From a virus (taxonomy: Duplodnaviria; Caudoviricetes): a DNA stretch of 64,000 bases. The DNA lies in IMG/VR virus record IMGVR_UViG_3300014205_000173; one strand, given 5' to 3'. The position numbers and the translations under genes were made by a program. Within the stretch, counting starts at the first letter, position 1. Each line of letters opens with the position of its first letter. The notes beneath the pieces are model-generated. The model was given only the letters and a program-made list of their open reading frames with translations, did no database searches and was not told the origin of the DNA. Of this stretch, positions 3,979 through 58,597 are shown piece by piece.

Positions 3979-4816
3979 TTTTAAAAGTTCCTTGAAATAT
4001 TATTTTATCTTTGTTAAAAATATCTTTATTAAAAATATTTTTTTCAATAAAACATTTTATTAAACTAAAAAAAAGTTTATGCCCATCTCCATTTAAGTGA
4101 GCTACATCAAACGTAAAACCACCCCTTTTAAGTTCCATCATATCTTTGGTTTCCAAAAATAAAATATTTTTATTCTTACAAAATTTTTTTATTATCCTAA
4201 AATGACTTTTACTAAAATCATCTAGCGAAACATGCGCTATGTACCTATACAAAAGAACTACGGGAATTATATTTTTATTTTTTAAATATTCACAAAACTC
4301 AAATAAAACTTCTACTGATTTACTTATCATTTCATGACTTTTGTTAATATATTCATATTCACTTATTACATCTTCTTCACTAACTATCCATTTATTTTTA
4401 TCTGAAAATTTAGAAGCAAAAATACTTCCATATTCAGAACAATGGTGAATCCTTATATCTTCCATTAATTCTGGCAAAGGTTGTCTTATATAATCTGGAA
4501 CTTGAATCATTACATATTTTATATTGTTGTAAAATTTTTCATAACACTTAAACCATTCAAAACAATTTTTTATACCAAAAGAACTTCTTCCCATATTTAT
4601 AAATTCTATTTTTTTATTTTTATAATGTTCAGAAAGAAGTTTTGTAAAATCATTGCTTCCATCTGGGACATATCCATAGGTTATTGAACATCCAACACAT
4701 ACGAACTTATCCCAAGTATCATTTTCTACAGGATATTTTGAACCACAAAAATTAAAATCATTACAATGATTTGGAAATCCAAGTTGATCTTTTATGAAAT
4801 TATTATTTAATTTCAT
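3968..4816 (-). CDS. SGNH/GDSL-fold esterase or acyltransferase-like protein
   Basis: GCSITYG (block I), INMGRSSFG (block II), DVAHLNGDGH (DxxH, block V). Confidence 0.75.
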   Translation of the reverse strand: MKLNNNFIKDQLGFPNHCNDFNFCGSKYPVENDTWDKFVCVGCSITYGYVPDGSNDFTKLLSEHYKNKKIEFINMGRSSFGIKNCFEWFKCYEKFYNNIKYVMIQVPDYIRQPLPELMEDIRIHHCSEYGSIFASKFSDKNKWIVSEEDVISEYEYINKSHEMISKSVEVLFEFCEYLKNKNIIPVVLLYRYIAHVSLDDFSKSHFRIIKKFCKNKNILFLETKDMMELKRGGFTFDVAHLNGDGHKLFFSLIKCFIEKNIFNKDIFNKDKIIFQGTFKNAI

Positions 4817-27700: not shown

Positions 27701-30700
27701 AATTCTAACAAAACCAGAAGAAGATTCTTGAGTTGAAACTGTTATTACCTTACTCCCATTATCTTCTTCCAAAAATTCATAAGAACTTTGATCAAAACTT
27801 CCAAATCCAGAACTATCAAATTCCAAATTTACTGTTCCCAAATAAGATCTAGATATTAAACCCAAAGAATCTACAGCTAAAACATTTATTTTAAATGGAG
27901 TTCCAGCAGAAACCGTTGTAGGAGCAATAACAACACCCTTTACTGCCACTGATCCACAAAAACTTAAGTTAGGAGATAATGGTTTATCAAAACCATTAAA
28001 ATCACTATCATTTGCTGTGACATCTGAGTTTTCAGAACCCTCAACTAAAGATACAGAAGGGATTGTTCCTATGTCGTTTGAATCTCCGATAATAAATGTC
28101 GTTTCTATTTCTCCAACAACTTTTTCTGTTTTATCAAACAATAAATTTTCTTGATAAAAATAAGTATTAATACCAGTTCCACCAAAAGAGGTGTCACCAA
28201 GAATAATTGTCATAGACCCATTTGATTGAAATATTTTTGACGAGTAAGTGGTATTTATTTGAAATAAAAGTTCTTCTGAATCAGAATTTGATATAGAAAA
28301 GTTATCAGTTTCAACGTTTATAGATACATAATTTTGACCTGATGGAGAAATAACATTATATGGTTCTAAAAACAAATTTTGTTTATAAAATTTAAAACTA
28401 TTTAAATCTTCATCTGTACTTAAATTAATTCTAAGTCCATTTGTTAAAGAAACAACACCGTTTGAAAAACTATTTTCAGATCTATTTATATATTGAGCTG
28501 TTATAATGCCTGTTGAATTTAGTGTCGAAGATAAATTTGATGGAGAAATTCTACCAAAAACATCACCTTCACCTAATTGAGAAGAAACCAGAGGAAGAGG
28601 ATTCCTTTGAGTAGTAGTTGTCCTTGGATCATCATAATATGTCCATGCAATATCATGCATTTTGAATGTTTTATCTTCGTCTGTATAGTTTGTAACTTTT
28701 GCACCAACCCTATATACAGAATTTGTGTTTGTAAATTTAGATTTATAAATCTTTGATAATCCTTGTTTTTCAAAGAAAATAATACGACCAAGACTTGGTA
28801 TACAAAAATATTTAGAAGAAGAAATTGGTTCGGTAAGATCTTGTATCCCTTCTGTTGCGTCAAAAACGCTTATTCCAAAATCTTGTGGCCAAGCACCACC
28901 CTCCAATACATAAAAGAATCCGTCTTCAGTTATTAAATTTTCCCAGTTCTTTCTCTTAACAATCATCCTTTTACCATGAGGAAGTTCTTTGTAAAAATCA
29001 TAATTAGTAGAATCGGATTCTAAAAATCCAAAATTTAAAACAACTTCTTCTGTTGTAAAATTTCCAAGCAAACAATCATCTATTGAGTTTATTTGAAATT
29101 CAAAAATTTCTTTTTCTGTATCCGTTTCTTTAGATTTATAAAAAATAAAACTTTCTTTTGGATTTATATGAGTTATTTGTATTTGTTTTATTTCAGGAGA
29201 GCACGAAGATAAAATTGTATTTAGAGTTATTTGTATTTGAAAATATTTCCCAAATAAATCAATAATATTATCCTGATTTGAAGTAAGATTTTCTATCCAA
29301 TCAGTCCAAATATCTTTGTCCTTTGAGGCTCTAATCTTATAAGTAACTGTTGTTTCTGGAGGAATATTTGAATCTATTTTTATTTTTGTAAAGTTTTTAA
29401 ATTCATCATATTTTATTATTTTATTCCAAGATCCAGTTCTTTCTCTATACTGTTCTTTTTCCAAAAAAATATCAGATATTTCAGAAAGTAAGTTTTCACT
29501 AAATCCAGCCAAATAAACATTAACATTTTCTCTAGACTGTTTTATTGAATTTAAATATTCATAATTTATATTATAACCAACTGTAACTATATATATTTTG
29601 CTTCTAAGATTTTGAAACTCAGAGTTATTTTGTATTAAATATTCTATAGATTTACCTACAGTTGAATTAAATCCATCAGTAATTATAAGCAATATTTTAT
29701 CTGACTCACTAAATCTTTTAGATATTATATTCCCTATTTGATATTCAAATTCTCTATTTTCATAAGAAAAATCAGAACCGCCATGATTTATAGATTTTGA
29801 AATTAAATTAATAGCTTCATTTAATGGTGTTTGATTGCCTTGAAAATTTATACTTTTTAAATTTTCCAATTCACTTAAAACAAAAGTGTCACTTGATGTA
29901 AACCCTTCTGTTATGTTAACAATTCCAGAAATGCTAAACTCATCCTCTAAAAGTCCACGTCCTTGTGCGTAGTTTTTTATTTTTTGATATTCAGAGTCAG
30001 AAAGACCAAATGTAACTAGCTGATAAAATGGTGTTGATGTTGCTGTGCTTGAAATTTGAGAAACAATCTCCTTTGCCATATCAATTCTTTTAAAATCAGG
30101 ATCATTGGAAGACATACTTCCAGAGCAATCTAAAAGAATGCTAACTGCTGCATTTGAAAATTTAGTAGATTCAACAAAGGCATATATAATTCTACTATTT
30201 AACGGATTCGTCAATATGAATTTTACTCTTTTTTCATCAAGCCTACTTGAAATATTGCTAAAATTTCCACCACCATTACTTGATATAAACACTCCTCCAT
30301 GTTGAGCAACAAACAGTTCTTGTGAATTTGAAATATTTGGAAGGATTCTTGTTGTTTTACTTTTAAGAAGTCCCTGAGAATAGAAAGTATCATACTCACT
30401 CATTCCTTCAAATTCAAAACTATCAACAAAAATATCACCAGAATCTGTAGACCTAAAAAATCCCTCGTTATTTCCAACATAAACCTTGTTGTTTTCCAAA
30501 AGAATTGTATTGGCTTGAGAAATAGTTTCTCCACCAACTTGTGACCAAAAAGAACCATTAAATCTATATATTCCATTTTCTGATGCTATAAAAATTAATG
30601 AGGTAAAGCTATCACCTTCAGAAGTGTATTCATACCCATATCCATATCCGTAAGAATTATAAAAATCTATTTCAAAGCTATCAAAACCATATCCTATTGA

Positions 30701-32167
30701 ATATCCATCAACATTAAGAACATCAAAATAATCTAATCCACTACCATAGCCATACCCATATCCATATGTTATTCCTGAAGTTCTATCTCCAGAAATCTGA
30801 TTAACAACTATTCCATCAGGCAATCCGTCATTAATAGATGACCAAGACAAACCCTGATCTAAGCTTCTATAAACACCATTATCTGTTCCAACTAATATCT
30901 CTGTATTTGACAAGAAAATGACATCATTAATAATTCTACCCTTCAATCCTCCAGAACCAAAAGGAAGATCATTTACAAGGACCCATAAAACAGAGTTTGA
31001 CTCAATCAAACCTTCGGTTATTGTTGCAACATATACGCATCCTTTTTCGGAAGAATTTGTGTTGTCAAAAGCTATTGCAATATCTCCATCTAAGCTAAAT
31101 TTGACGGAACTAATATTTCTTACAGAATTATCATCAAGTAATAGTCCAGATATATTTTCATTCCAAGTAGATCCTGAATTTGTACTAAAATAAACTCCAG
31201 AATAATAATTTGAAGATACCAGCCAGCACATTGCACGGTTCGTATTTCCTGCTGGATTTATTATATCTGCATAATTACAGTCATTAACAGATAAATAAAA
31301 GTTACTTTCTGACCAGTCTACCTGATAGGATTTAGATCCTTCTACAAAAAGAGAAGAAATATCTGCACTATAAATTCTTTTTCCAGAATCACTTATTGAT
31401 ATATAATTTCCAGAAACATCTACTGAATTTCTTGATGCGATAATAAAGTCTTGTCTATTTGATAAGGTTGAAACCTCTTCCAAACCACTTGGAAGATTTA
31501 CAAAAACTGTTTTACTATTTTCTTGATCTGTAAAATCAAAAACATCATCAAAAACAATATCGTTAAAATTGCTATATATTTTAAAGTTTCTCTTTATATT
31601 TATATCTGAAATAAAATCTACAGTTTCAAATCCATATGCATATTCTGCCGATGATGAATTTGATTGTATGTCAAAACCATACCCCAACAAATCTCCCTCA
31701 AAGCCTAAAACGTTAAAGTAATCTAAAGGATCGTCATAACCATACCCGTATCCATATCCATAAACATAAGATTCATTATATGCATTTCCTTCAGATGGAA
31801 ATGTTGTAAAAGAATAATCCGAAGAAAAAGAGTAAACTTGTTTATTCGTGGTAATATTTGAAGAAAAAACCCATTCAACAAAATTCTTTTTAAAAAACTC
31901 TTCGTCTGGTAATTCGTCATTTTTCCTTTGAGTCAAAACCATTGAGTAGTAATCTGGATCTAATAATAAGCTTCCAAAATCAAAAACGTACCACCCCTCT
32001 TTCTCGATATCATTTACTGATCTTTCAGAAAAAGCCAAAGCAGAGCCGGTTGGGAATCCTCCATTAATATGATCTGATTTATAAATTGTTAAAATTAATT
32101 TAAAATCAGTAGAATCCCCTAAAACAGGAGTTAGATAGAGGGCAATATTTGTTATTAGCTGACTCAT
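24791..32167 (-). CDS. Giant multidomain putative virion/fibre protein (2458 aa): 2 YG modules, Asp-box propeller, vWA, beta-sandwiches, degenerate PHP-like domain, C-terminal GH32/43-like propeller
   Basis: Asp boxes STNSGSTW, SLDQGLSW, STDSGDIF; MIDAS DCSGS..TPL..TDG; YWGDFNVPTIHSDG..RSCYATTGARI; KDPFIYRDGADYKLFYSG; no signal peptide or anchor seen. Confidence 0.75.
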   Translation of the reverse strand: MSQLITNIALYLTPVLGDSTDFKLILTIYKSDHINGGFPTGSALAFSERSVNDIEKEGWYVFDFGSLLLDPDYYSMVLTQRKNDELPDEEFFKKNFVEWVFSSNITTNKQVYSFSSDYSFTTFPSEGNAYNESYVYGYGYGYGYDDPLDYFNVLGFEGDLLGYGFDIQSNSSSAEYAYGFETVDFISDINIKRNFKIYSNFNDIVFDDVFDFTDQENSKTVFVNLPSGLEEVSTLSNRQDFIIASRNSVDVSGNYISISDSGKRIYSADISSLFVEGSKSYQVDWSESNFYLSVNDCNYADIINPAGNTNRAMCWLVSSNYYSGVYFSTNSGSTWNENISGLLLDDNSVRNISSVKFSLDGDIAIAFDNTNSSEKGCVYVATITEGLIESNSVLWVLVNDLPFGSGGLKGRIINDVIFLSNTEILVGTDNGVYRSLDQGLSWSSINDGLPDGIVVNQISGDRTSGITYGYGYGYGSGLDYFDVLNVDGYSIGYGFDSFEIDFYNSYGYGYGYEYTSEGDSFTSLIFIASENGIYRFNGSFWSQVGGETISQANTILLENNKVYVGNNEGFFRSTDSGDIFVDSFEFEGMSEYDTFYSQGLLKSKTTRILPNISNSQELFVAQHGGVFISSNGGGNFSNISSRLDEKRVKFILTNPLNSRIIYAFVESTKFSNAAVSILLDCSGSMSSNDPDFKRIDMAKEIVSQISSTATSTPFYQLVTFGLSDSEYQKIKNYAQGRGLLEDEFSISGIVNITEGFTSSDTFVLSELENLKSINFQGNQTPLNEAINLISKSINHGGSDFSYENREFEYQIGNIISKRFSESDKILLIITDGFNSTVGKSIEYLIQNNSEFQNLRSKIYIVTVGYNINYEYLNSIKQSRENVNVYLAGFSENLLSEISDIFLEKEQYRERTGSWNKIIKYDEFKNFTKIKIDSNIPPETTVTYKIRASKDKDIWTDWIENLTSNQDNIIDLFGKYFQIQITLNTILSSCSPEIKQIQITHINPKESFIFYKSKETDTEKEIFEFQINSIDDCLLGNFTTEEVVLNFGFLESDSTNYDFYKELPHGKRMIVKRKNWENLITEDGFFYVLEGGAWPQDFGISVFDATEGIQDLTEPISSSKYFCIPSLGRIIFFEKQGLSKIYKSKFTNTNSVYRVGAKVTNYTDEDKTFKMHDIAWTYYDDPRTTTTQRNPLPLVSSQLGEGDVFGRISPSNLSSTLNSTGIITAQYINRSENSFSNGVVSLTNGLRINLSTDEDLNSFKFYKQNLFLEPYNVISPSGQNYVSINVETDNFSISNSDSEELLFQINTTYSSKIFQSNGSMTIILGDTSFGGTGINTYFYQENLLFDKTEKVVGEIETTFIIGDSNDIGTIPSVSLVEGSENSDVTANDSDFNGFDKPLSPNLSFCGSVAVKGVVIAPTTVSAGTPFKINVLAVDSLGLISRSYLGTVNLEFDSSGFGSFDQSSYEFLEEDNGSKVITVSTQESSSGFVRILLKFNGSEYKSNPIKVQPMGSITNIYWGDFNVPTIHSDGRQSIEFIKNYSKNISQISFLGTSDDIDSIDQEEWDFIKKETLDQSTDEIILIPGIRHRSQDYFGERVVLFGNFDDIPDTKPTSPKDLSSAKSQIEQLISDIRDYDVISYPVHTAYENDQSSTIFNSRGFDFENYRTIMSYSPVSDSSDFISIKESAIEIFSDHGGIQNQTEFVNENFSISQNSQYVNYALQMGKKFAFISNSGGYSSRPGYYLGDRSSKVTLPSISSGNNRGITAVITSNISRENVFNALKNRSCYATTGARIYLEFQAFYGDIPIGIGKQFKDTSTDTTTLTPLKSISFKFRAAGDNSNISRFQIVKLEVDNFNSFKNILDTFSTSETQLNKVDFGSDSGDLTFIETEISNQGVSGKEYVYYLKVTQFNGHVAWSSPIWIDFGRESGIRNSEDSLKNKIYKIALIEDASSSNNFGIVSNAPLKENSEGFPLNHFDIISLRPSFTPKDTRVTPYITPESSNVSLMVSDKRCSFSGFRVSNYSDFNIFYGTHYMKTIGSEDDYKSENIISLNDSKISNLNGDTVQGFYDEKYKFLNSESDIIPTERSKKYRDWFFGTMWQYISSSNFRFGYTLEKTSIFSSLIPDAFVVKDPFIYRDGADYKLFYSGHSGKYPLQKDVLNNKYLLSQSTIVSSLPDTVRELNQREEFLGLINTSESNSMSGGENIRIMYANDDGFDTRNFFKKNVVPNTFGGTANGTTIYYSYCPNYIKISNTDHRIYYLGWFYGQSNSKKPVLGLFCYRFSDINNLDTTGSNVLTFAFTNSSEELPKSYSPRRSSFESNNFFPSDIREDAFNSDFWFETHPAYASRWLWLSVVQQDGGDFYAFFNYMNQIDSKIYIGQDNPGTGILYSNDVSKLVFRQFDLTQVKNIPSLSGKVFFHPFKVSENSQTNWYSIYRNIDSSGSNISEDVFYSRFNWIPEFLL
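30626..30766 (-). repeat. YG module copy B (in the 2458-aa protein)
   Basis: YGYGYGYGSG-LDYFDV-LNVDGYSI-GYGFD-SFEIDFYNS-YGYGYGYEY. Confidence 0.9.
31625..31762 (-). repeat. YG module copy A (in the 2458-aa protein)
   Basis: YGYGYGYGYDDP-LDYFNV-LGFEGDLL-GYGFD-IQSNSSSAE-YAYGFE. Confidence 0.9.
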
Positions 32168-35100
32168 TCTATAATAAATTCCTGTCCAAGAACTTTTCCA
32201 CCAGAAATAGATTCAAGATTTCCAACTCTTCCTATAAACTTCCATTCCGTCCCATCTTCATTTCCCAAGAAAACTCCCTTATTTGTAGAAATATATATTT
32301 TTCCATTAGACTCTTCTAAGTTAAAGACAATATTTGCACCAACATCATCCAATAGTGATGAAAGATTATTAAGAAATTCCCAGTTAGAGTCAAAACTTTC
32401 ATTTGTAAAGTCAGAAGAATTTCTCACAAATCTAATATCATTAAGACTGTTGCTTACTGCTACAGCCAATACGACATTAGAAGAAGTATAAATCATAGAA
32501 ACAAATTTATATCCAACTAAATTGCTTGATAAATTTTGTGATTTAATTACATTTTGTCCATTTTCTGTTGAATAAAAAAGACCACTATTGGTTCCAACAA
32601 TCCAGTTCCCGCTCAATGTAGATACACCACAAAGAATTCTTTTTGATCCAGAAAACTTTTCTATATCAACAATAAATGAGAACGAATCAACAAGATCTCC
32701 AGTAGCTCTCTTATATCTTGGTGTGGTTAAGAAGCTTCCAGAGCCATCTATTTCTGTTGGATCTGGAATTAACCTATAAGGAAATACTCTATATGCATAA
32801 TACATATTTGACTTCAAAATAGGAGCTAGCTGTTTTTTGTAATCAGAGTCTTCTCTTAATGCAGTTAGTAATTCCTTGTTTGTCATACTGCTTCCATTCG
32901 TGATTAAATCTTCATATGCTCTGATATCTGCTTTATTTTCCAAATATCCGGTTGATGTTATTGAAAACGATCCATCTGCCTCAATTCTTCTTGCTTCACC
33001 TATAGTTGCATCAACTCTGTCAATTATTGGAAAATCTGTTGTTGGGTAATTTTTCCCCTGAGGATAGTTGTTAGGACTATTTACATTTGGGAAATCTCCA
33101 ATAAAAATAACACCATTCGTATGGTAGGTAATTGAATCTTGACTTCCAACATATTTTTTCTGGTTTGAAGATTCTTCAAAAAGCAATCCAGAATCACTGT
33201 TTTCAAACTTTGCACTTTTACCAAAAGAAAAACCACTTTCAGGACTACTAAATCCGTTTGGATAAACAGAACCATTTTCTGGCAACCAAACACCATTACT
33301 ATAGCTCTCTGCAATTTCAAACGTTGAGAATGGTCCATACCTTACAATTAATGCAGAATCCCACCCCTTATACTCTAAAAGAGAAGAAGACATTGAAGAT
33401 TTAGCCCAAACAGATTTACTTAGCATTTCTTCTGTTTTATCAGTCCAACCACCATCATTAGGATTTGAAATGCTTCCCCAAGAAAATTGAATACTTTTCT
33501 TAATGGAAATATCACCTGAGTATGTTATTATTGTTTTTGATATTGGTCTTTCTACAGTTATATATAATCCATTTTCTCCTCCTCTAAAAATTCTTCTAAC
33601 TCCCTTGTCCACAGATTCCCATATTACATTTATTTCGGAATCTAACTGTTCTACATTCCTATAATTAACACGATCTACATCACTTGACCACAAACCATTA
33701 TCTGTTGCTAAAATTATAGAATTATCACTTAATGATATAAGATCTTTGATATTACTAGGAATAAAGGAACTCGTAAGTTTCTGCCAAGTTGTTCCATTGT
33801 TTGATGTTGTATGAACACCTTTGTTTGATATTGCAAAATTTTCATCAGAATCAAGCTTACCTATTTTATTTACCTTTATATATCCACTATCATACTCTGG
33901 GTTTTGTAATAAAAATGGAATTGTTAAAGGATTTACTTCATCCTGACCTATTTTTATCTCATCTAAACCAAATTTTTCTTCCTTTCTAGATATTTTGAAA
34001 GTTAAATATTTAGTTAAATCATCTGTTTTAAATGTAATTTTTTCAAAATTACTTAGAATATTGTCATTTTTTGGGTATGTTTTTGCTATTATTGTATTTG
34101 AGTCTGTAAATATTTCATCACCCATTTCAAAATTATCAAAAGTAACATTTGTTATAAGACTATCAGAATCTACTTGAACATTAAACTCCTCTCTTATTGG
34201 ATCGTAATATTTTTTTATTCCCAAAGAATCAAATCCTAAAAATATAGAATTAGAAAATTCAGAAACAATAGAATATTTATTTAATCCAGATCCACAATTT
34301 AATATTAAATTCCAACTTAAACCAAAATCTATTGATCTATAGATATCTTCAGTAGAAGTTATTGCGTATAATATTCTAAAATCTTGGGTGTCAACAAGTA
34401 CTTGTTTGTATCCTGTATCTGGCAATCCATTGCTGTCCAAACTAAGTTTTGCCCAAGATGTTCCATCATTTGTTGAGTAATAAATTCCAATATCAGTAGA
34501 GATATACAAAACATGTTTAATAAAATTTCTAGTTTCTTCTGTTTCTGAAATTTCTATATTTAATATATCTGCATTAGATGGTATTCCGTTTGTTTTTTCT
34601 ACCCATTTTATTCCGTTATCATTAGAAATATAAACCTTACTATAAAGAGATCCTTGTTCTTTAAAAACCATCCAAATAGGCTTTACAATTCTTGGTTTTT
34701 TAATTAGAGTAGATTCTACTCTATATGGGACAGAAAATCTATCAAAAATATTTGCATTTCCCTGATTTATTATTCTGTAAATGTCCGAAACCAATCCAAC
34801 TGTAGTTAATCCCGTTTGTGAGTCATAAGAGTTGTATGAAATCTCAAAACATAATGGTCTTACAATAACTGTATTTACTGACAAGATTCTTCCTGTGAGA
34901 TCTTTTCCACTAAAAACGTTTCCTGAAATATAAACATTCAAACCATCTAATTCGGATGTAAGTCCTTGCATCCTATCTCTTTCGGTATAAATATTACCAA
35001 TTCCTATGTCGTAAATTCTATAAAAATATGGAATACCTGACTTTAATGTTATATCATTATCTACATAGAGGCTTTCAGAAAAATTATCCAAACCAATATA

Positions 35101-38100
35101 AACAACTTCTGAATTGAAAATTTCATTACCAACAGAATATTCTTGTGCGTTTGTTGGATTTTCTTTTGGATTTTCATAAGAAGATCTTATTATTAATATT
35201 GTCTCTCCATTGTTTTCAATCTGAACAGAATTTTCTGTTTTAGAAACAAAACTATTTATTCTTATTTGAACAACGTCTCCAGTAGTTGGAAGTCCTTCTG
35301 TAGATTTTGCGTAAACTTTAGTTTCTGAATCCTTTATATAAAGACCGTCATCTTTAACTCCAACCAAAATAATATCTGAATTTACAGAAAGAATTTCAGC
35401 ACAAGTTATATTTCCACTTTCAAACCCAAACTGATCACAAGACCACTCCCACCTGAATGTAGTTCCTCCATCAATTGAGTTATATATACCATTCATTAGC
35501 CCACGATTAGATGTCCCAACAACAACTCTATTTTGATTATTTGGATCTTGAGAAATACAAGTTATATTCCATCTTCCATATTCTATTCCGTATTGAGTAA
35601 AAAATCTAGATTCAAGTCCAGAAAAAGTTAGAGAATCATATTGGTGTATTCCAAAACCAAGTGTTGGAATGATTAGATTTTCTGTTACTGTAATTTCATT
35701 TATTGGAATATTAAAATATTGTTGTTCGTTTCCAGTTAAAGATCTATCTTGTTTATCCCATCCTGTAGTTAGGTCAATAGCAAACAACCCTACATTGTCT
35801 TTACCAGATCCATAAATTGAAGTAGAATAAAGAGTTCCATCATAATATTTAAAATCTGAAAAAATTCCGTTTGGCTGATTAGGAACTATAAATGGTTCCC
35901 AAAACATCATATCACACCCATATGATCTATAAAGAAATGATGAGTTTAAGGCGGGAGTATGTTCGTAGTATGTTTCAAAATAATTACTATTTTGACCAAA
36001 AATAAGATAAGAAACTATTCCAACTTCAGTTTCGTCCGAATCCTCGGAAAAATTTATACCCCAAGAATTTCTTGGCATAAACTTACTATCATATAAATCT
36101 TTCCTGCCTGAAAAAATTTGTGTCCAAGTATCAAGCTGAGAAGTTATTGTAAGTTGTGTTGCCTCTCTATTTCTTCTTCCTGAAATTAAGGAGACTTTCT
36201 TGTGATAATTTTTTATTTCATCATTCCTGTCAGAAGTAAATGGCATTAGGAATAATTTATTATCAAATCCACCAACAAGAATTACATTAATTGCGTTTAG
36301 AAAACAAATTGCCCCACGATGATTTCCTATCGTAAAATGATTTGTTGCTTCCCAATTATAGCTATTCATCCCGGGGCGATCTACCCAACTAAGATTCTCA
36401 ATAAATGACTGTTTAACGTCTATACTTGTTATTCTCTTTTCCAAATCAACTTCTTGTGGTCTTAATATAACAAAGTCATGTGTTATCTTTCCATAAAGTG
36501 CTGATCTAGTAGCATAAATAACAACGCTACATTCAAGAGCAGTAGAATCATTCCTTACGACAAGATCTGTATAACAGTGTTCAATTATATCAGAGTCATT
36601 TTCTTCTGAAAACTCAAAAGGATGCCATATACTAGATCCATTTTCCAATATAAGTATATTGTCCTTTCCTCCTGCATAAAAATCACCAGACACACTATCT
36701 TTTGTTATTCTATAAATTGTTTGAATTGATAAGCCTTCGGCAGACCCTATATTTGTAGGCAAACCAACTATTTCTGTAGGATCTTGATTCGTATCATTTT
36801 GACTGTTAAATTTTATTTTACAAATTTCAACTTCTGTTTCCGTAATTCTATTATCAAAAACTCCAGCAAAAATTATTGGATTTTCACTAACACTAGAAGC
36901 CTCTGAAAGATAAATGTGCGAAGGAGATCCAATAGATGATGTCCTATCAAAAACTTTAATATTTTCTCTATTTGAAATAAAATCAAAATCTTCAAGAACA
37001 GAATCTTCTCCAGTTGAAGATATTAAATTTTCAGAAAACATAACATAATCAATTATAGTACCTAAACTATTTTCAATTTCTAAAACTCCCTTAATTTCAT
37101 AAGGCAATAGAACAACTTCATTCCACCTTCTTCCATTATTTACTGTGTTAAGAATAATGTTAGAGTAAGAATACATACCACTTGTAGATGTTTTGTCTAC
37201 AAAAAAATCACTAGAAATAGGATTCCCACTTAAAACATAAACAGGTCTCCAACTTCCTATGTTAAATTTATCTTCTCTGTAAATAGTTCTAGGATCTTCC
37301 TCAATAAAGGAAAGAAACGTTCCATCAGATCTTTTTATACAAAGACCAATGCTTGTAGCTATTATAATCTCTTGAGACAAACCTTCTATAACATTTCTAA
37401 CTTCTAAAACTTTATTTTCAACACCTAAAAGATTGTCTGAAAATAAATCATTTTTACCAAAATCAACACGATTATTATCTGTTACTTGAATTAAAATATC
37501 ACCAGCAGAAACATATAAAATATTTGAAGTATCTACAAATATATTTGTAATATTTTCGGCTTCATTAAATTGGTTTTTTACAATAAACGGAGTTGGACCT
37601 CCCTCAAAAGACCATAATCCCTTTGTTGTTGCTACCACAATCCTTGAGGCATTTTGTGCGAATTGATCAGTTAATGAAATAGAAATTTTCTTACTGTCTA
37701 TCTCAACACGCCTTCCACTGGCATCATAAAAATCCAAATAGTAATAGTAAGTATCTGGACAAATTAGGCTTACGTCATTTATTGAAGAGTTTATTGAATT
37801 AGAATCGCCTGAAAAAAGTATACAGTGATCTTCTCCAACCATTTCTGTTATAAGAAAATTTTTCCCGGAAGATGAAATCTCGCTTTCACCATCAACTCTT
37901 TCTACATAAACTGTATCTAATGCATTGGCTAGAACTTTTCTTGATATGTCATTTTCTCTAACATTAACCAACATGTATTGATTTACAAGACTATTTGTTC
38001 CTATGCTTTGTCCTGATGTAACTGAAAAATTTTGAGCAACAATTTTCCACGCTAAAAAGTTTTCTCCATCAACACTAATCGTATCTTCTTGTATTGAAAA

Positions 38101-51063: not shown

Positions 51064-54000
51064 CCGTTATCAACTCTATCAATTAAATCTTTTACTTGGT
51101 CTCTTTCACCATCTGTTTCAAATAATATGGCCATTTCGTCAACGCTTGGAATACTTCCATCTGTAGAAATAAATCTTATTCCAATTCTAAATTTATTATT
51201 ACTTTGAACTCCTATCGAAGATAAAGAAAAAACTTCATTTGTTGGAATAATTGTATATTCATCAAAATTAGTAATAACTTTACCATTTACATCTTCTTCC
51301 GTAGAAATTCCAAATTGAATGTCACTTAAAGCTACTCCTGACGGACTTGTTGGAATATCTCCGTTGTATGTCAGTATACTTCTTACGATATTTGAAGTTA
51401 AATTAAATGTTGTTGTAAAGAAATTTACTGAGTTTTGCTTACTATATGTTATCGTAACATCATCTACTGTTGGAGTTACATCTTTTATTGAAGATTTTAA
51501 AATTATCTTAAACTGAATAAATCTTTTTAGTATTAAATTATTATTATTATCTACAGAAAGTTGTGAAAAGTCAACTAATTCCTGTCCAGAAATAGTAAAT
51601 GGATCTAAAATTTCAGTAACAGTTTCTGTTCCAATATTGTTCCAAGTTTTCAATAAAAGATCTTCTTCAGAAGATCCTGTTCTAACTTCAAACTCTACAG
51701 TGGTTCCTGTTGGTTTTGATGATGTCCAAGAAATTTCTTTCCAAAATCTAAAGTCAGATCCACCATCAAATACATTTGAGATATAGGTAGCTTGCGCTTC
51801 TTCTAGAATTTCACCGGCATATGTTGGTCTTGTCTCTGCTGGTATCGTAGAAGAAATTGTTGGTCTACTGTCATCTCCACTATCTCTATCAATTTTAATA
51901 GCCTGATAATTATAATATGATGTTATTTCTTCTGCGGTTGGAGACTCTTTAAATCCAACAACTGCTTTTAATAATTTTTCTTCAATTATATAATTTTCTT
52001 CAGGATCAACTTCCCAATCCTGTTTTGGGAATCTAGAATAGTCTTTATCAATAATTCTACCAAAAACACTCCTGTATGCTCTTGACATAAAATTCATATC
52101 TTCATTATTTGAGCCAACTAACGGGACAAAGAAGTAATTACCATCAGAATCTTCCCAACCGGGCTTTGAATAAAGAAGTCTCAAATAATTTTTGTAACTT
52201 TCTTCTGAAAACGTATTTTCAGTTAAATTTCTTAATCTTGCTGTGTGCCAACCACGAATTAAATAAACTTCCTTTTCTTTTTCTGTTTCCCCACTTGTTG
52301 AATTAAAATAAATTGACGTTATCTTTTTAACATATTCTCCATCTTCCTCAACATATCTTTCAACATCTTTTCCAAAAAAATCTATAGAAAAATCACTATA
52401 TGAATATAAATCCTTCTCTATTTTAAATATATATGTTCCATCCTTAGGAATATAAAAAGATCCAGTAGAAACTAAGGCGAATTTAATATTAAACTCATTC
52501 CAAAGAGACATGCTTGATCCTATTTTCTGATCAATAGGAGGTATTGGCAATCCATCTATTTTTGGCCACCATCCTCTGTCAAATTCCAAGCCAGTAGAAT
52601 CATCAATTCCATCCAACCCATCTACAACAACATTAAACACATAACTATCATCTGGTAAATATTCCGAGTCAACATTTAAAATTGTAGAAATATCACCAGA
52701 AACAACCAACAAATCACCATCTATTGAAATATTTTTTATTTCATTATCTATACTTCCTAAAGAAATGTTGTTTCCCAAACTATCAACTATTGAGTATGAT
52801 AAATTCCTCATAGTATAGTCTATTCCAGATTCATGCAAAACAACATAAGATTCATCTAAAGATGAATCATAAAATACTTTAAATATTTTTGCACTAACAG
52901 TATAGTTTTGACCAAAAACAAGTTTATTATAAAAATTTATACCAAGCAATTGATGGTGTTGTACTTGGTCTAATATAGTTTGTGGTGTAGAAATAAATCC
53001 TATATGAGAGTAACCTTGATATATCCTTGTTGTCCAACCTTCATTTGAAGATATGCCAGAAGAAGTATCATCAAATTCTGCTGGATCTATATATATGTAC
53101 TCATCTGATGTTCCAACAATAGCTGTTGGTGTTTGATTGTCTCCCGAAACTAAACTATCAACATCCGCTGTTATGTTTTTTGTTATTTTTAAAGAATCAT
53201 TTATTATTGAATTTACTGAAGAAGGAATTTCATCTTCAACTGGATAATAACCAAATTTTACAGTTCTATTTTCAGTATCAAAACTATCCTTTAGAGAATC
53301 TCTCCATCCTGTTCCACTTTTTGTAATAAAATTAATTTCTTCAATATCTTCAGTAATATATTGAAATTTTCTACTTAAAATTGTTGCAGCGATTCCTTCT
53401 TCATCCTCAATTAATATCCAAATTTTTTGTCTTAAAACGCTACTAATAGTAGTTCCGCCATCGCTATCAGCAGAGTAATCATCTGTCTGCAATCCATTTG
53501 AATCAAATCTAATTGATGGCGATAAATTATTTGATCTAAACACATCCAAAATTTTAAAAGAAAAATCTTGAGCAGAACCTATTATTAAGCTTTTCCCTAT
53601 AAACTCCTCTCTATTGTTATATATTTCTTTGGCAACAGGATTTGATCTTGCATAATTTTCTGTGTTTTCATCGAGAAACCCAATAAGAGTTCTAGGGGTA
53701 GATCCCGGGTTTACTGGAATATGAAAATTTTGAACATTTACAATATTGTTATTTTCACCAACACCCTGAGAATAATCTTCAGCAGTATCTGGGATATAAT
53801 GTCTAACGTCATTTGGATCAAAAAACCAATCAGGACCTTTATACCCAGAAGAAAATCCCTTTACCTTTATTGAAATTGGTCTTTTAAAATTCCATCCAAC
53901 AATAGAAGAATATGGTGAGTATACATTATAACTTAATCCATAATTATCACTAAATCCAATTAGCAGATCATTAACATATGGATGATTTATAAGTCCCCCT

Positions 54001-57000
54001 AAATTATCACCAACCAAAACATCTTTCACTACAATTGTTCTGTTATTTTTCGTATCTGTTGGTAATAAATTTGTCCAAAATTCATAAGAGTTTGAAAGAA
54101 CTGTTTTTAATTCTTTTGAAATTAAAAGACGATCATCTGCGACGATAGTTGCACTTTCAATAACATTTGCTGGAGATATTGTCTGAGAACCTTGAATATA
54201 AAATGGCACCGAATAAACTTCTGACTCATTTCCAGCTTTATCTTTTACCTTAAAAAATAAAATTTTAAATCCACCACCAGAAACACTAATACTATGAGTA
54301 AACCTTTTAAAACCATAGTCAGTTCTTGATGTTTCTATGTCTAAAACGTCGCTATTATTCATCGAGACATATTCTATATCTGGAGAATTATCCATATAAT
54401 ACTCTACAGCATCTATAGGACTTCTAGACGTTCTAATTTCACTAAAAATATCCTCAGAAATACTTGAAAAATTTAAATCATAGTTATATGCATATTCATT
54501 TAGTTTTTGAATTTTAATTGGAACTTTTGATGGAACTCCATCTGTTTTTATTCCAAAAAAATGTTCCGATGAAACCTGAGATTCTAAATCTCCACTCGCA
54601 AGCTCAACAGGAATATCTACTTCTAAAAACTTTATAGAATCTATTCCAGAAGTACTTTCATCAACATCAAAAGAGAATTTTACAACATTATCACTATCGG
54701 GATATATGAAACCAAAGATGTTTCCAAGCTCAAAAGTATCTCCAGAAATATAAGATTCTACTCCAGAAGGCAATGAATTGTTTTGTATTTCACTTCTTAA
54801 AAATAAACTTTCCTTTTGAAGAGAATCATACCCAAAAACACTTCTATCTATTTGTTCGTTAATTAATTCTGAAGACAAAACAGTTAAATAAAGACCTGAA
54901 ACACCAATAGTAGATGTTCTTGCCCAAGATATATTTTTAAAAAGCCCTTGAGTTGAATAGTCTTCAGAAATTAAAGACTGAATAAACTCTGCTTTATCGT
55001 CACCTTCTTGAAGATTAAAGATCCAAGAGGGTCCGTTTTCTCCAGTTATTTCAACATTTTCTGTCTGAATATCATTTCCTTCCCAAACGAAGGTTCTGTC
55101 ATGTGATAGGTGAGTTGATGGATATATCTTATCTAAAACTTGTTGTAATTCTGAAAAAGAATCTTCAATATCTATTGCTATAGATCTTTGAAAAATATGG
55201 TTAGAGAAATCTTTTAAAAAAATCTTCTTTCCAACATCACCGTCCTCTATATCTGCAACAGCAAAAAAACCCCTATCTGTTTGATTGTAAGATACAGGAT
55301 ATGTTAGTTCAGAACTCCAACCATCCTCATACATTGTGTATCCACAATTCAAATAATTCAAATCTGTTTTTGTTACCCCATTATTAGCAAAAGTTCTATG
55401 TTTTAATATTTTCCCCTTGCCAAAAATATTGCCGTTTTCAGGTCTTGAATTCCATTTAAACATATTGTATAAATATGGGTTTATTTGTCCTAAAAACTTA
55501 GACGTATTATTAAATCTTAAAAAGTCATTAGTATATATTAAATCTTCCAAAATGACTAAATCTTTTTCGCTATCATCTACTCTTGCACTTTTTATTTCAA
55601 TTGAATCCCAATTTATTGTATTATCTGGATTTGGATTTGGATCTGCATTATAAATATTTGGAATTGGATTTTTAGTCAAATTATTATAGGCAGTTCCATA
55701 GCTATAGTATGGTATATATTCAAACTCAGAAATATGTAATCTTACAGACCCATTATATTTTGTAATATCTGAATTGAAATTTAATTCAGTATTTCCCCAT
55801 CCAGTTACTGTTTTAACTTTATCTTCATAGTGAATTTTAATGTCTTCATATATTGTTTTTTGTGACGGAGAATCTTCATACATAAAAAGATCTCTTGGAG
55901 AAACCCTAGCTCTTCCTATAAAAACTTCATCTAAAGAAATATCTGAACCAAGATTATTTTCTGTTGTGAAAACTGACGTACAATCAGAATCTGGTCTAAA
56001 GTTAAATTCAACATAAGGATATGAAACCTGTATGACTGGATCTACCCCTTCATTTTTTAAATTCTTTTGATATTCAACAAGTTGAAGAGTTTCTTCCTTT
56101 AGATATATTTTTAAAGCTTGATCCTTCGAAAATGTTGGATTTAGATTGAAAAACATTTGATAAGAAAATGGAGAAATATAGTAAACCATATCTTCAGTTA
56201 ATGTTCCTGAATAATTCTCATGATTTACTACGCCCAAATTAGATCTAGTATAAAGAGTTGTGTTTGACGGATCAAACAATAAATTATTACTATCATTTGG
56301 TTTTTTCTGATTATTCCTATTTTGAATAACAGAAAATCCTCTTCTTGGTAAAAACGTATAGTCCGTTATACTTCCTGACGGGTTAACCATAATCTTTTTT
56401 ACTTCATCTTCATCTTTATACTGACCATAAGCAACTAAATCAACTACATTAGAATTTGTTCCGGTTTTTTTAAAAATAAGAAAAAAATCTTGGTATGGTG
56501 AAGGATATCTTACTTCAACATATTCTTCTCCAACAATAGAATTGAATGTAACAGATTCTGTTTCATCTGGAAATTTATATGTTCTTTTTTTAAATCTTCT
56601 AGAATATGCCGGGAATGTAGAGATAAAATTTTCAGTGGATTCAAATCCAATTGGATGGTTTGAAAATCCCTGATTATTATAAACACTATTTGATATAAAT
56701 GTTGGCAATCCTTGTGGTACAAAATTTACAGTCTGAGAATCACCATCATCATAATCTGCGGAATTTAAAATCAAATTAAGGGTTGGAAATATTTTTTTAC
56801 CATTAACAATTTGATCAGCCGAAACATCATCAAAAGGTCCTAGACTACTTTCTTCCTTGTTTACAGAATACTGATAAACAGATCTTACTAAATTTTGAAT
56901 AGAATATTTAGAATCATAAACCCTAGAAGATCCAGATCCAAGTATTTCAGTTAGTGATGTAGCGTTTTTATGAAAAGAAATTAATCCATAATATCTTTTA

Positions 57001-57632
57001 GAACTTTCACTTCCACTCTGAGCTTTTATGTTTATAGAATTGTCTCTATAGTCATAGTATATATAGAGACCGGGTTGCCCATCACGATCAATATGCCTAT
57101 CTTTAACAGAAACACTATCGTATAATCTTTCTGTGTATATGTAGGGGGAAGAAAGATCATTTAAAGATGTTGATAGCTTCCCAAGTGGAGATTTTGTTAA
57201 TGCGGATATATTCCTAATTACTGGAACCTTAGAATCTACTCTAACTAATCCATTTTCTGCCCAATCACTCCATTCTCTTGCAAGGGTTCCCTGCGTTCTA
57301 ATTCTCCAAACAAAGATACCATCTTCTGTTATTTCAGAACTTAAATCTAATGTTATTTGTTGTGAATTTCCAGAACCACTATATTCATAATAGTCATAAT
57401 TAGAGTTATCCAAATTAAAGGATTCCAACACCGTCTCTATTTCTTCCCTAGAGTTAATTTTTAATTTTATAACCTGTATTTGATATAAATATTGAACATC
57501 CTCTCCATTATATTTCCAAACAAAAGAGATATTTTTACCATTAGACCAATGATAATCGTTTTGTGGAGAAACTATTGTAGGAGTTCTACTTTTAATAATA
57601 AAGAAGGATACATTAGTTTGCTTTGAAATCAC
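51060..57632 (-). CDS. Large putative virion structural protein (2190 aa): N-terminal FN3/Ig-like, PA14-like domain, C-terminal beta-sandwich pair
   Basis: GTG start with AAGGAG SD; PTIVSP..FVW..YQIQV..WRIR..WSDW; GSFYIPKDGTYIF..VYLIRGWH; YIS.VFDGG..W..ISW..P.GT.V.FEVRTG. Confidence 0.72.
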   Translation of the reverse strand: MISKQTNVSFFIIKSRTPTIVSPQNDYHWSNGKNISFVWKYNGEDVQYLYQIQVIKLKINSREEIETVLESFNLDNSNYDYYEYSGSGNSQQITLDLSSEITEDGIFVWRIRTQGTLAREWSDWAENGLVRVDSKVPVIRNISALTKSPLGKLSTSLNDLSSPYIYTERLYDSVSVKDRHIDRDGQPGLYIYYDYRDNSINIKAQSGSESSKRYYGLISFHKNATSLTEILGSGSSRVYDSKYSIQNLVRSVYQYSVNKEESSLGPFDDVSADQIVNGKKIFPTLNLILNSADYDDGDSQTVNFVPQGLPTFISNSVYNNQGFSNHPIGFESTENFISTFPAYSRRFKKRTYKFPDETESVTFNSIVGEEYVEVRYPSPYQDFFLIFKKTGTNSNVVDLVAYGQYKDEDEVKKIMVNPSGSITDYTFLPRRGFSVIQNRNNQKKPNDSNNLLFDPSNTTLYTRSNLGVVNHENYSGTLTEDMVYYISPFSYQMFFNLNPTFSKDQALKIYLKEETLQLVEYQKNLKNEGVDPVIQVSYPYVEFNFRPDSDCTSVFTTENNLGSDISLDEVFIGRARVSPRDLFMYEDSPSQKTIYEDIKIHYEDKVKTVTGWGNTELNFNSDITKYNGSVRLHISEFEYIPYYSYGTAYNNLTKNPIPNIYNADPNPNPDNTINWDSIEIKSARVDDSEKDLVILEDLIYTNDFLRFNNTSKFLGQINPYLYNMFKWNSRPENGNIFGKGKILKHRTFANNGVTKTDLNYLNCGYTMYEDGWSSELTYPVSYNQTDRGFFAVADIEDGDVGKKIFLKDFSNHIFQRSIAIDIEDSFSELQQVLDKIYPSTHLSHDRTFVWEGNDIQTENVEITGENGPSWIFNLQEGDDKAEFIQSLISEDYSTQGLFKNISWARTSTIGVSGLYLTVLSSELINEQIDRSVFGYDSLQKESLFLRSEIQNNSLPSGVESYISGDTFELGNIFGFIYPDSDNVVKFSFDVDESTSGIDSIKFLEVDIPVELASGDLESQVSSEHFFGIKTDGVPSKVPIKIQKLNEYAYNYDLNFSSISEDIFSEIRTSRSPIDAVEYYMDNSPDIEYVSMNNSDVLDIETSRTDYGFKRFTHSISVSGGGFKILFFKVKDKAGNESEVYSVPFYIQGSQTISPANVIESATIVADDRLLISKELKTVLSNSYEFWTNLLPTDTKNNRTIVVKDVLVGDNLGGLINHPYVNDLLIGFSDNYGLSYNVYSPYSSIVGWNFKRPISIKVKGFSSGYKGPDWFFDPNDVRHYIPDTAEDYSQGVGENNNIVNVQNFHIPVNPGSTPRTLIGFLDENTENYARSNPVAKEIYNNREEFIGKSLIIGSAQDFSFKILDVFRSNNLSPSIRFDSNGLQTDDYSADSDGGTTISSVLRQKIWILIEDEEGIAATILSRKFQYITEDIEEINFITKSGTGWRDSLKDSFDTENRTVKFGYYPVEDEIPSSVNSIINDSLKITKNITADVDSLVSGDNQTPTAIVGTSDEYIYIDPAEFDDTSSGISSNEGWTTRIYQGYSHIGFISTPQTILDQVQHHQLLGINFYNKLVFGQNYTVSAKIFKVFYDSSLDESYVVLHESGIDYTMRNLSYSIVDSLGNNISLGSIDNEIKNISIDGDLLVVSGDISTILNVDSEYLPDDSYVFNVVVDGLDGIDDSTGLEFDRGWWPKIDGLPIPPIDQKIGSSMSLWNEFNIKFALVSTGSFYIPKDGTYIFKIEKDLYSYSDFSIDFFGKDVERYVEEDGEYVKKITSIYFNSTSGETEKEKEVYLIRGWHTARLRNLTENTFSEESYKNYLRLLYSKPGWEDSDGNYFFVPLVGSNNEDMNFMSRAYRSVFGRIIDKDYSRFPKQDWEVDPEENYIIEEKLLKAVVGFKESPTAEEITSYYNYQAIKIDRDSGDDSRPTISSTIPAETRPTYAGEILEEAQATYISNVFDGGSDFRFWKEISWTSSKPTGTTVEFEVRTGSSEEDLLLKTWNNIGTETVTEILDPFTISGQELVDFSQLSVDNNNNLILKRFIQFKIILKSSIKDVTPTVDDVTITYSKQNSVNFFTTTFNLTSNIVRSILTYNGDIPTSPSGVALSDIQFGISTEEDVNGKVITNFDEYTIIPTNEVFSLSSIGVQSNNKFRIGIRFISTDGSIPSVDEMAILFETDGERDQVKDLIDRVDNG

Positions 57633-58597
57633 AGGTCTTCTCCTTCGTTAAACGCATACGATGCAACCGTTAGATTAAAAACTACTTCAGAATAAATTTT
57701 TTGTTCTCCACTGGAAGCGATTGTTAAGTTTCCATCATCAATTTCAGGAGCTTCATAAATCATCGCAGAAACCGTTCTTCCACCACTTCCAGTTAGATTT
57801 CTTGATACTTGTGGAGTTTGTCTATTTAGCTGAGTTTCTTTTCCCCACCCATCAATTTGATTTAAAGAAATATCTTTGTTTATAGAAACCTCAACAGAAG
57901 AATATCCATCAGAATCTGTTTCTAGTGAACTTGGATTTATTATAACTCCCGGAGACCCCCAAAAAAATACCCTTACATTTCCCTGAGGAATACTATCTTT
58001 CAAAACTCTTGCCCTAACAACAATTGTATCAATAGAATTTGCGAAAACAAAATTTGCATACTCATAACCCCAACCATAAGAGTATGAGGATTCGAAGTTT
58101 GTAACATTTGAAGGACTTTCATCATCCTTATATCCATATCCTAAAAGATTTCCAGAAAGACCTATAACATTAAAATAATCTAGGCTGGGAGCATTTGGAT
58201 TTGAAAACTGACACTGACTACTTGTTGCCGAAATACTTACAGAATGCCCGGTTACAGAAACTTCTATTTGTCCTGTATCTGGGTTGTATGAAGAAACTAC
58301 ACCACTAATTGTTTCAGCTTCATCTATTGCATCTACTGTAATTATATTACCAACTTCCCAACCTAATCCTAACTCAATAAAACCAGTAATATTCCCAGAA
58401 AAAGAAGGTGTTAATGATGTAATATCTATATCACAAAATCCAGATCCATGAACCCCAACAATTGTAAAGTTACTTGTAGTTCCATACCCATATCCATAAA
58501 ACCCTTCATCTATTGTTTCTAGCTGTAGCTCCCACCTTGAAAAAACAGAAGAAGTTTGAGTTGTTAATATAAGGAGTTCTTGTTCTGCTATTGCCAT
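57629..58597 (-). CDS. Putative virion protein (322 aa): split YG module, tail-fibre-like beta domain, Big-1/Ig-like domain
   Basis: GGAG SD; YGYGYG then later LDYFNV..GYGY..YSYGWGYEY; GVVSSYNPDTGQIEVSV; ARVLKDSIPQGNVRVFF..TDSDG. Confidence 0.72.
   Translation of the reverse strand: MAIAEQELLILTTQTSSVFSRWELQLETIDEGFYGYGYGTTSNFTIVGVHGSGFCDIDITSLTPSFSGNITGFIELGLGWEVGNIITVDAIDEAETISGVVSSYNPDTGQIEVSVTGHSVSISATSSQCQFSNPNAPSLDYFNVIGLSGNLLGYGYKDDESPSNVTNFESSYSYGWGYEYANFVFANSIDTIVVRARVLKDSIPQGNVRVFFWGSPGVIINPSSLETDSDGYSSVEVSINKDISLNQIDGWGKETQLNRQTPQVSRNLTGSGGRTVSAMIYEAPEIDDGNLTIASSGEQKIYSEVVFNLTVASYAFNEGEDL
58058..58498 (-). repeat. YG module copy D, split by a ~100-aa insertion
   Basis: YGYGYG at 58481-58498; LDYFNV-IGLSGNLL-GYGY..SYSYGWGYEY at 58058-58183. 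Confidence 0.8.

Follow-up and report, generated by a model that had tools for sequence, protein, structure and literature searches.

A recurrent tyrosine-glycine sequence module in the giant proteins of metagenomic huge phages

Introduction

Does a short, tyrosine- and glycine-rich element that recurs at distant sites in the giant proteins of a phage constitute a protein module in its own right, and if so, what might it do there? This question is raised by a 64,000-nucleotide stretch of the IMG/VR virus record IMGVR_UViG_3300014205_000173 (hereafter the window), which is a portion of a 287,662-bp metagenomic contig. A first-pass annotation, made from the sequence of the window alone, had described four copies of a Tyr-Gly (YG) module, each built of a (YG)3-5 run, an L[DN]YF[DN]V core, a GYG segment and a closing aromatic strand, and had taken them for a portable unit selected at the protein level. 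Tens of kilobases of giant-protein genes in huge phages are almost wholly unannotated, and a recurring module of this kind offers a way into them. The analysis reported here followed the module through homologous proteins, domain searches, a structural model and the surrounding genes. Its function is proposed tentatively. The preferred reading, which is held at somewhat less than even confidence, is that of an insertable beta mini-domain that may display tyrosines on virion fibres, probably for binding; it draws on sequence and on one structural model.

Results

Four copies of the module are present in the window

A profile hidden Markov model (HMM), built from all collected instances of the module, was run against the six-frame translation of the window and detected exactly four copies (42-55 bits), designated A to D. 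All four are on the minus strand and at the positions first reported, and translation confirms each of them (Table 1). As a control, 200 residue shuffles of each of the five large window proteins (1000 in total) were scored; the maximum was 9.7 bits. In every window copy exactly 8 residues lie between L[DN]YF[DN]V and GYG, as had been observed at first pass. The copies had also been assigned to three giant proteins. The number of hosts is indeed three, with copies A and B in a protein of 2458 residues, copy C in one of 6299 and copy D in one of 322; the last of these is small, and to it the description as giant does not apply.

In translation, copy A reads (YG)4-5, LDYFNV, 8 residues, GYGF and a YAYGFE tail. 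Copy D is divided, with ~100 residues separating its (YG)3 run from the rest of the module. The beta-rich insert of ~95 residues found at this point has no Pfam match and is common only to the closest orthologues and to the homologue P0023.

The repeat is not a repeat of the DNA. When copies are compared, 7-13 core residues are identical, yet no more than 4-8 of these have the same codon, and the DNA of the core is 57-74% identical. This mixture of synonymous codons indicates that the repeat is maintained at the level of the protein and not of the DNA, which agrees with the first-pass view. A DNA microsatellite or low-complexity tract was considered and rejected, given the mixed codons, the low scores of the shuffled proteins (at most 9.7 bits) and the retention of both position and sequence across proteins that are 25-60% identical.

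The module is conserved in homologues

A profile of seven copies was searched against 1.84 billion representative proteins (E < 0.001) and matched 49 clusters. Most of these are proteins of 1,000-6,300 residues with 1-3 copies, and the rest are small relatives of the 322-aa protein that contain an immunoglobulin (Ig)-like domain. A local HMM round yielded ~105 instances in 70 proteins. The homologues are encoded on contigs of 105-349 kb; among them, those of 1357-1503 aa carry a copy near residue 355-365. In three orthologues of the 322-aa protein, which are 51-59% identical to it overall, every element of the motif is unchanged.

Across ~100 instances the elements (YG)3, LDYFDV, GYG, FE and YGYG[YW]GYE are kept. 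Expressed as percentages over the ~105 instances, the columns of strand 1 are Y98 G100 Y96 G96 Y86 G76, those of the core L60 D78 Y81(F18) F95 D61/N31 V86, those after the turn G100 Y86 G84, those of the loop F43 E48 and those of strand 4 Y75 G53 Y83 G93 Y50/W32 G100 Y62/F19 E93. The gap of 8 residues between core and GYG, thought at first to be fixed, is found in 60 of the 71 instances defined by pattern; where it truly departs from 8, an insert of 17-23 residues is present in the loop that joins strand 2 to strand 3. The segment that follows GYG, up to the last strand, had been described as acidic and Ser-rich. It is most often 11 residues long and has a conserved F-E, rather than being simply acidic/Ser. 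The first-pass annotation had made its proposal depend on conservation of the LDYFDV core and of its spacing in homologues, and both are kept. Outside the module, a further short Tyr-Gly run (H-Y-G-Y-G-Y type) is seen at the C-termini of the compact family members P0041, P0044, P0046 and P0049; in the window 322-aa protein and in those orthologues closest to it, the C-terminus is E-G-E-D-[LI] and not such a run.

The conserved Glu residues bear on one alternative, in which G-Y-E and F-E mark cuts made after Glu by a prohead-type maturation protease. In T4, phiKZ and similar large myoviruses, virion proteins are cleaved behind the Glu of short motifs, and here Glu ends strand 4 in 93% of instances, with F-E being common in the loop. 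However, 3-4 residues suffice for such a site, which does not call for a 50-residue module with invariant glycines, and a cut within a propeller or Ig loop would split folded domains. A protease site is considered very improbable.

No known family matches the module

Searches against Pfam with the whole host proteins gave nothing at the module positions, and PHROGs gave no match at the module on these proteins. No family was recovered when seven isolated copies were compared with Pfam-A by hmmscan (E up to 10), and the module profile, run with hmmsearch over 177,635 PDB sequences (E up to 10), returned 0 matches. No copy was detected in 185,579 prokaryote species genomes (one each) by a two-pattern scan and tblastn, nor did tblastn of the 322-aa protein match any of 50,697 phage records. 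An ESM Atlas feature search with the P0049 module gave no usable match, and no such module was found in the literature on YG runs together with phage. In IMG/VR, a pattern search returned a single contig with the module, G001, described below; two further matches were judged from their translation to be due to chance.

Several candidate identities were examined individually and rejected. Choline-binding (CW_binding_1) and glucan-binding YG repeats give no profile match, and here each copy stands alone, with hundreds to thousands of residues to the next. Carbohydrate-binding module (CBM) families have no Pfam match at the module, the weak CBM_5_12 match being located elsewhere, in the 1948-aa protein. 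The module also does not resemble a substrate of radical S-adenosylmethionine (SAM) enzymes of the kind that mature ribosomally synthesized and post-translationally modified peptides (RiPPs), for example at three-residue cyclophane motifs. Such a substrate is a short precursor peptide whose gene adjoins that of its SPASM radical SAM maturase and is inherited along with it, whereas the motif is found in proteins of 322-6299 aa, at 20-55 kb from the radical SAM genes. As judged by these comparisons of sequence, the module is a new family without detectable relatives, confined to huge phages of a small group that is known from metagenomes only. The earlier impression that the family was unrecognised is upheld for Pfam, PHROGs and the PDB sequences, where no characterised family matches.

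A related phage contig shares the modules and the gene order

G001 (IMG/VR contig UViG_3300031576_001126) is 140 kb long, has 34% G+C and is estimated to be 42% complete. It contains nine copies of the module in five proteins (1373, 4146, 443, 6287 and 2440 aa). Its gene order is that of the window, namely a large gene, a small module-bearing gene, a gene for a ~2195-aa protein without the module, genes for proteins of ~6290 and ~2440 aa, and then glycosyltransferases. A 349-kb ENA contig and fragments of 10 kb show the same order. Matching proteins also have copies at matching positions. Window residues 136 (copy A) and 468 (copy B) correspond to residues 146 and 458 in the 2440-aa protein of G001, and residue 1012 (copy C) corresponds to residue 991 of the 6287-aa protein, where the flanks are in common. 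More than ten homologues have a copy at the position of copy B (residues 453-482), which is placed between Asp-box/propeller-like repeats.

The block of giant genes in G001 extends without interruption for ~77 kb (19196-96400; L015-L019) and ends at the glycosyltransferase cluster. Most of its 13 open reading frames (ORFs) encode 1079-6287 aa; three are small (188-443 aa). G001 also encodes a phage-type DNA polymerase, helicases and an exonuclease, and a minor-tail-protein gene is located just ahead of the block. The polymerase and helicases, together with the minor tail gene, support a phage origin and a location in the tail region. From sequence features of this kind, the host proteins are inferred to be virion fibres.

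The presence of the same module in three to five structural proteins per genome, with the gene order conserved, would be in keeping with a role in assembly. Modules of different chains or of different fibre proteins might pair through flat Gly or Tyr faces, and so bundle the fibres, cross-brace them or attach them to a shared partner in the virion; alternating Tyr-Gly strands could provide a flat face for such sheet packing. A docking address, however, is usually terminal and single, whereas copies in the homologues occupy many internal positions, from residue 35 to ~5630, with 1-3 per protein. The number of copies per site also differs between orthologues, which is hard to fit to an obligatory joint. 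A complex prediction for two copies of module B (11-row alignment) scored 0.00, with the fold of the partner uncertain, and speaks neither for nor against such binding. A function in assembly is regarded as unlikely.

The module is inserted into other domains

Comparison of orthologues shows the module as a clean block that is present or absent. In the 6287-aa protein of G001, the third module corresponds to a clean gap of ~46 residues in the 6299-aa window protein, in the middle of a propeller-like repeat; at the site of the first module, the window protein has an unrelated, shorter stretch. This behaviour, along with the invariance of the motif elements in the orthologues described above, bears out the proposal of a portable module selected at the protein level.

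Copies B and C are flanked by strand-like segments and by motifs of the form S-x-D-x-G-x-x-W, which resemble Asp boxes (recognised by eye; no profile match). The first-pass annotation had held that the copies sit between or inside unrelated domains, and a position inside other domains was found for the propeller-like Asp-box repeats and for the Ig-like domain of the 322-aa protein. Its more specific claim, that copy B interrupts a propeller, is plausible from the Asp-box-like motifs, although propeller repeats gave no profile match.

The module itself also accepts insertions. Across instances the loop between strands 1 and 2 varies from 2 to ~100 residues. Within the 322-aa family, the loop from the YG strand 1 to LDYFNV is 13-23 residues in the compact members and ~100 in the window protein (W322), P0004-6 and P0023. 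In two homologues of the 322-aa protein, P0023 and P0027 (L022:10001-12109), a whole VWA domain of ~380 residues is found inside a loop of the Ig-like domain. The small 322-aa-type protein seems to be a scaffold that takes several different insertions.

The domains recognised in the host proteins are of the adhesin type and comprise Big_1, VWA and weak CBM_5_12 and discoidin-like matches. In relatives of the 322-aa protein the Big_1 match (25-40 bits) starts directly past the module. The Big_1 cut-off is 34.9 bits, with P0036 (40.5) and P0068 (36.6) above it and P0049 and P0004 below. The window 322-aa protein itself has no Pfam match at E 0.01, Big_1 included.

A structural model suggests a loop-out from an Ig-like domain

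AlphaFold2 was used to model the compact homologue P0049 from an alignment of 29 family members, with a mean predicted local distance difference test score (pLDDT) of 67. Strands are predicted at residues 23-30, 32-40, 55-57, 64-69, 74-77 and 80-89. The pLDDT is 86-95 in the Ig-like domain, 82-83 in the YG strands (32-40 and 80-89) and ~75 in the GYG strand. Its top structural matches were Big_1 Ig domains of intimin and invasin, and the match to intimin D00-D0 had a Z score of 12.5 over 93 residues (root mean square deviation 1.9; aligned range 20-227). Fold searches with Atlas, Foldseek and VIA returned Ig-like domains only, driven by the host domain. Since the aligned range is 20-227, strand 23-30 would be the first Ig strand, and the module would loop out between Ig strands 1 and 2. 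The model thus leads us to infer that the module loops out of the Ig-like domain with its ends close together. Taken as a whole, the evidence makes it probable that the module is an ordered, insertable mini-domain.

A module that is predicted to be ordered, and whose packing seems to be tightly constrained, to judge by the invariant glycines and the constant loop lengths, might also serve purely as a structural brace, a rigid Tyr-ladder hairpin that stabilises or spaces its host domain without binding any ligand itself. For a mere brace, however, the many residues of exposed type (Tyr, Asp, Glu) are unusual. Orthologous propellers occur with or without the module, which indicates that the host fold is independent of it. 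The brace is judged to be decidedly unlikely.

A possible role as a tyrosine-covered binding finger

Under the preferred reading, in which tyrosines are displayed for binding, the module of ~45-50 residues would be a small, independently folding beta domain. The (YG)3-5 run would form strand 1, followed by a short turn, LDYFDV as strand 2, an 8-residue G-x-x-G turn, GYG as strand 3, an 11-residue F-E loop and YGYG[YW]GYE as strand 4. The alternating Tyr-Gly strands 1 and 4 would pair and the ends of the module would meet, so that the unit could drop into the surface loops of other domains. Giant proteins would take it up in their propeller blades, and the 322-aa protein in the first loop of its Ig-like domain. 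From there, the module would project as a finger bearing 6-10 tyrosines, and each Tyr ring of the paired ribbon would cover the neighbouring Gly. Merkel and Regan are said to have found in 1998 that glycine in a beta sheet is stabilised by a cross-strand aromatic partner. A fibre might then grip a polysaccharide of the host envelope, or a glycosylated fibre next to it, through several contacts that are each weak and made by tyrosines. No other residue is as enriched as Tyr in protein binding sites, and the classic minimal surface for binding is made of Tyr together with Gly and Ser.

Several points weigh against this proposal. The structural model is that of the homologue P0049 and not of the window protein; AlphaFold2 modelling of the window 322-aa protein, from 4 sequences, gave a pLDDT of 33 and was unusable. 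Even in the P0049 model the LDYF segment has a pLDDT of only ~63. That strands 1 and 4 pair and that the tyrosines are exposed is read from the string of predicted secondary structure and from one alignment range. The label of fibre is derived from gene order and domain types only. Finally, Phe hardly ever takes the place of the first two tyrosines of strand 1 (Y in 98% and 96%, F in 1%), which would also fit a chemistry of the hydroxyl group, such as modification.

The giant genes are followed by a sugar-tailoring and radical SAM cluster

The genes of the window are all on the minus strand, with a G+C content of ~30%. The one public run listed with the window is a DNA run from a landfill metagenome, which is probably the source sample; the listing contained no RNA run. 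Five large ORFs encode, in order from upstream to downstream, proteins of 1948, 322, 2190, 6299 and 2458 aa (Table 1). Most neighbouring large ORFs overlap by four bases (e.g., 32164-32167, 51060-51063 and 57629-57632), and these overlaps suggest translational coupling of the whole block (24791-58597, minus strand).

Table 1. Coordinates of the module copies and of the large ORFs in the window.
Feature	Coordinates	Strand	Residues	Score (bits)	Remarks
Copy A	31610-31762	-	136-187 of 2458-aa protein	44.1	
Copy B	30620-30766	-	468-516 of 2458-aa protein	52.5	
Copy C	47878-48030	-	1012-1062 of 6299-aa protein	42.1	
Copy D, strand 1, (YG)3	58481-58498	-	34-39 of 322-aa protein		Invariant in 15-29 family members
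Domain of ~95 residues inside copy D, loop between strands 1 and 2	58199-58480	-			Placed by loop-length comparison
Copy D, remainder	58043-58198	-		54.5	LDYFNV, 8 residues, GYGY, 16-residue loop, YSYGWGYEY; invariant in orthologues
1948-aa protein (3' 1796 codons only)	58610-64000	-			ORF
322-aa protein, host of copy D	57629-58597	-			ORF; relatives match the Big_1 Ig-like family just past the module; fold of a homologue resembles intimin D00-D0
2190-aa protein	51060-57632	-			ORF
6299-aa protein, host of copy C	32164-51063	-			ORF; propeller-like repeats
2458-aa protein, host of copies A and B	24791-32167	-			ORF; weak VWA_2 and DUF3604 matches

Downstream of the large ORFs are ~24 genes that include glycosyltransferases, sugar aminotransferases, a GDP-mannose dehydratase, methyltransferases and radical SAM proteins. 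The radical SAM set consists of one B12-binding protein and two SPASM/twitch proteins, the latter encoded by adjacent genes at 1928-3978 on the minus strand. Both of these are far below every NCBIfam named-family cut-off. In the upstream one (2932-3978, minus strand) the SPASM/twitch domain is N-terminal, ahead of the radical SAM core, with a weak resemblance to NCBIfam N_Twi_rSAM; the downstream one (1928-2935, minus strand) has the usual domain order. The 282-aa ORF that precedes the two genes (region 1928-4816, minus strand) has no match. On related fragments, a 591-aa protein with glycosyltransferase families GT2 and GT9 is encoded upstream of the 1948-aa protein (L006:1-4106 and L022:1-4134), as is a protein of 856-861 aa that belongs to no known family. 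With the GT2/GT9 protein upstream and the cluster downstream, glycosyltransferases are found on both flanks of the giant block.

These neighbours raise the alternative that the module is a recognition or acceptor site for the tailoring enzymes of the phage, which might attach Tyr-linked glycans or form a radical cross-link, for example at the invariant Y-F-[DN]. The functions suggested at first pass included an acceptor of Tyr glycosylation or other modification, an inter-subunit zipper, a dityrosine cross-linking site and a chaperone address; none of them gained support here, though the zipper and the modification may still apply. In the window as in G001, the giant genes directly precede a large cluster for glycosyltransferases and sugar tailoring (24 genes in the window), and the two SPASM/twitch radical SAM genes are part of this neighbourhood in the window. 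The rarity of Phe in strand 1 would suit modified tyrosines. Mycobacteriophages are known to glycosylate their virions (Freeman 2023, as cited in PMC12619734). The 'moraphages', large phages of aquatic habitats described as a lineage in 2025, have four core glycosyltransferase families (PMC12619734).

A modification tag, however, would have no need for invariant glycines, fixed loop lengths or a predicted beta structure, and the tyrosines at module positions 11, 41 and 43 are freely swapped for Phe or Trp. G001 retains nine modules and the glycosyltransferase cluster, yet no Radical_SAM or SPASM match was found in its 140 kb (estimated 42% complete), and this weakens the link to radical SAM enzymes. 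The window radical SAM proteins fall below the cut-offs of the named maturase families. To our knowledge, no glycosyltransferase of the cluster is in a family known to act on Tyr. A role of the module as a modification tag is likewise decidedly unlikely, and a dedicated tag read by a cytoplasmic glycosylation and radical SAM machinery of the phage, which would leave the fibres with Tyr glycans or cross-links, is somewhat less likely still. The display of tyrosines for binding remains the preferred, if tentative, reading.

Discussion

The module marks a family of related structural proteins and sets domain boundaries for work on their expression and structure. It also provides a compact object of ~50 residues in which binding, modification and self-association can be studied. 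If it is a finger that binds glycans or the host envelope, it would represent a new adhesion module and possibly a scaffold for Tyr-based binders. If it is instead a modification tag, a large glycosylation cluster would be linked to its own substrates, and the phage would encode a protein-tailoring system with its own portable acceptor domain.

Among known systems, the CW_binding_1/Choline_bind repeats and the glucan-binding YG repeats of glucansucrases and clostridial toxins are alike in being short aromatic beta hairpins with Y-F-D, a turn glycine and an aromatic-Gly pair. They too occur in surface or adhesive proteins, where they bind carbohydrate or teichoic acid through stacked Tyr and Trp. 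Unlike the single, four-part insert of ~50 residues described here, they are 20-residue units in long tandem arrays. The spacing of Gly and aromatic residues in choline-binding-type repeats presumably also differs from that of the module. The Big_1 Ig-like domain, as found in intimin and invasin, is the host domain of copy D and not the module itself; we know of no described Big_1 domain with a Tyr-Gly insertion between its first two strands.

An analogy, with no common ancestry, is offered by cattle antibodies. YG runs are encoded by bovine antibody D segments, and the ultralong third complementarity-determining region of the heavy chain (CDR-H3) is a stalk-and-knob structure in which a far-reaching, YG-rich beta ribbon carries the tip (PMC7366855). 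The bovine knob is rich in disulfides, whereas the tip of the phage module would be an LDYFDV-8-GYG hairpin without cysteines, on YG strands that are presumed to pair. The CBM1 and CBM5/12 modules are comparable in size and disposition, being all-beta units of 35-60 residues with an exposed strip of Tyr/Trp, scattered as accessory modules in large extracellular proteins. They differ in that they are usually beads on linkers rather than loop insertions, and they have no sequence match to the phage module. Small, aromatic-rich accessory beta modules in adhesive proteins therefore have precedents.

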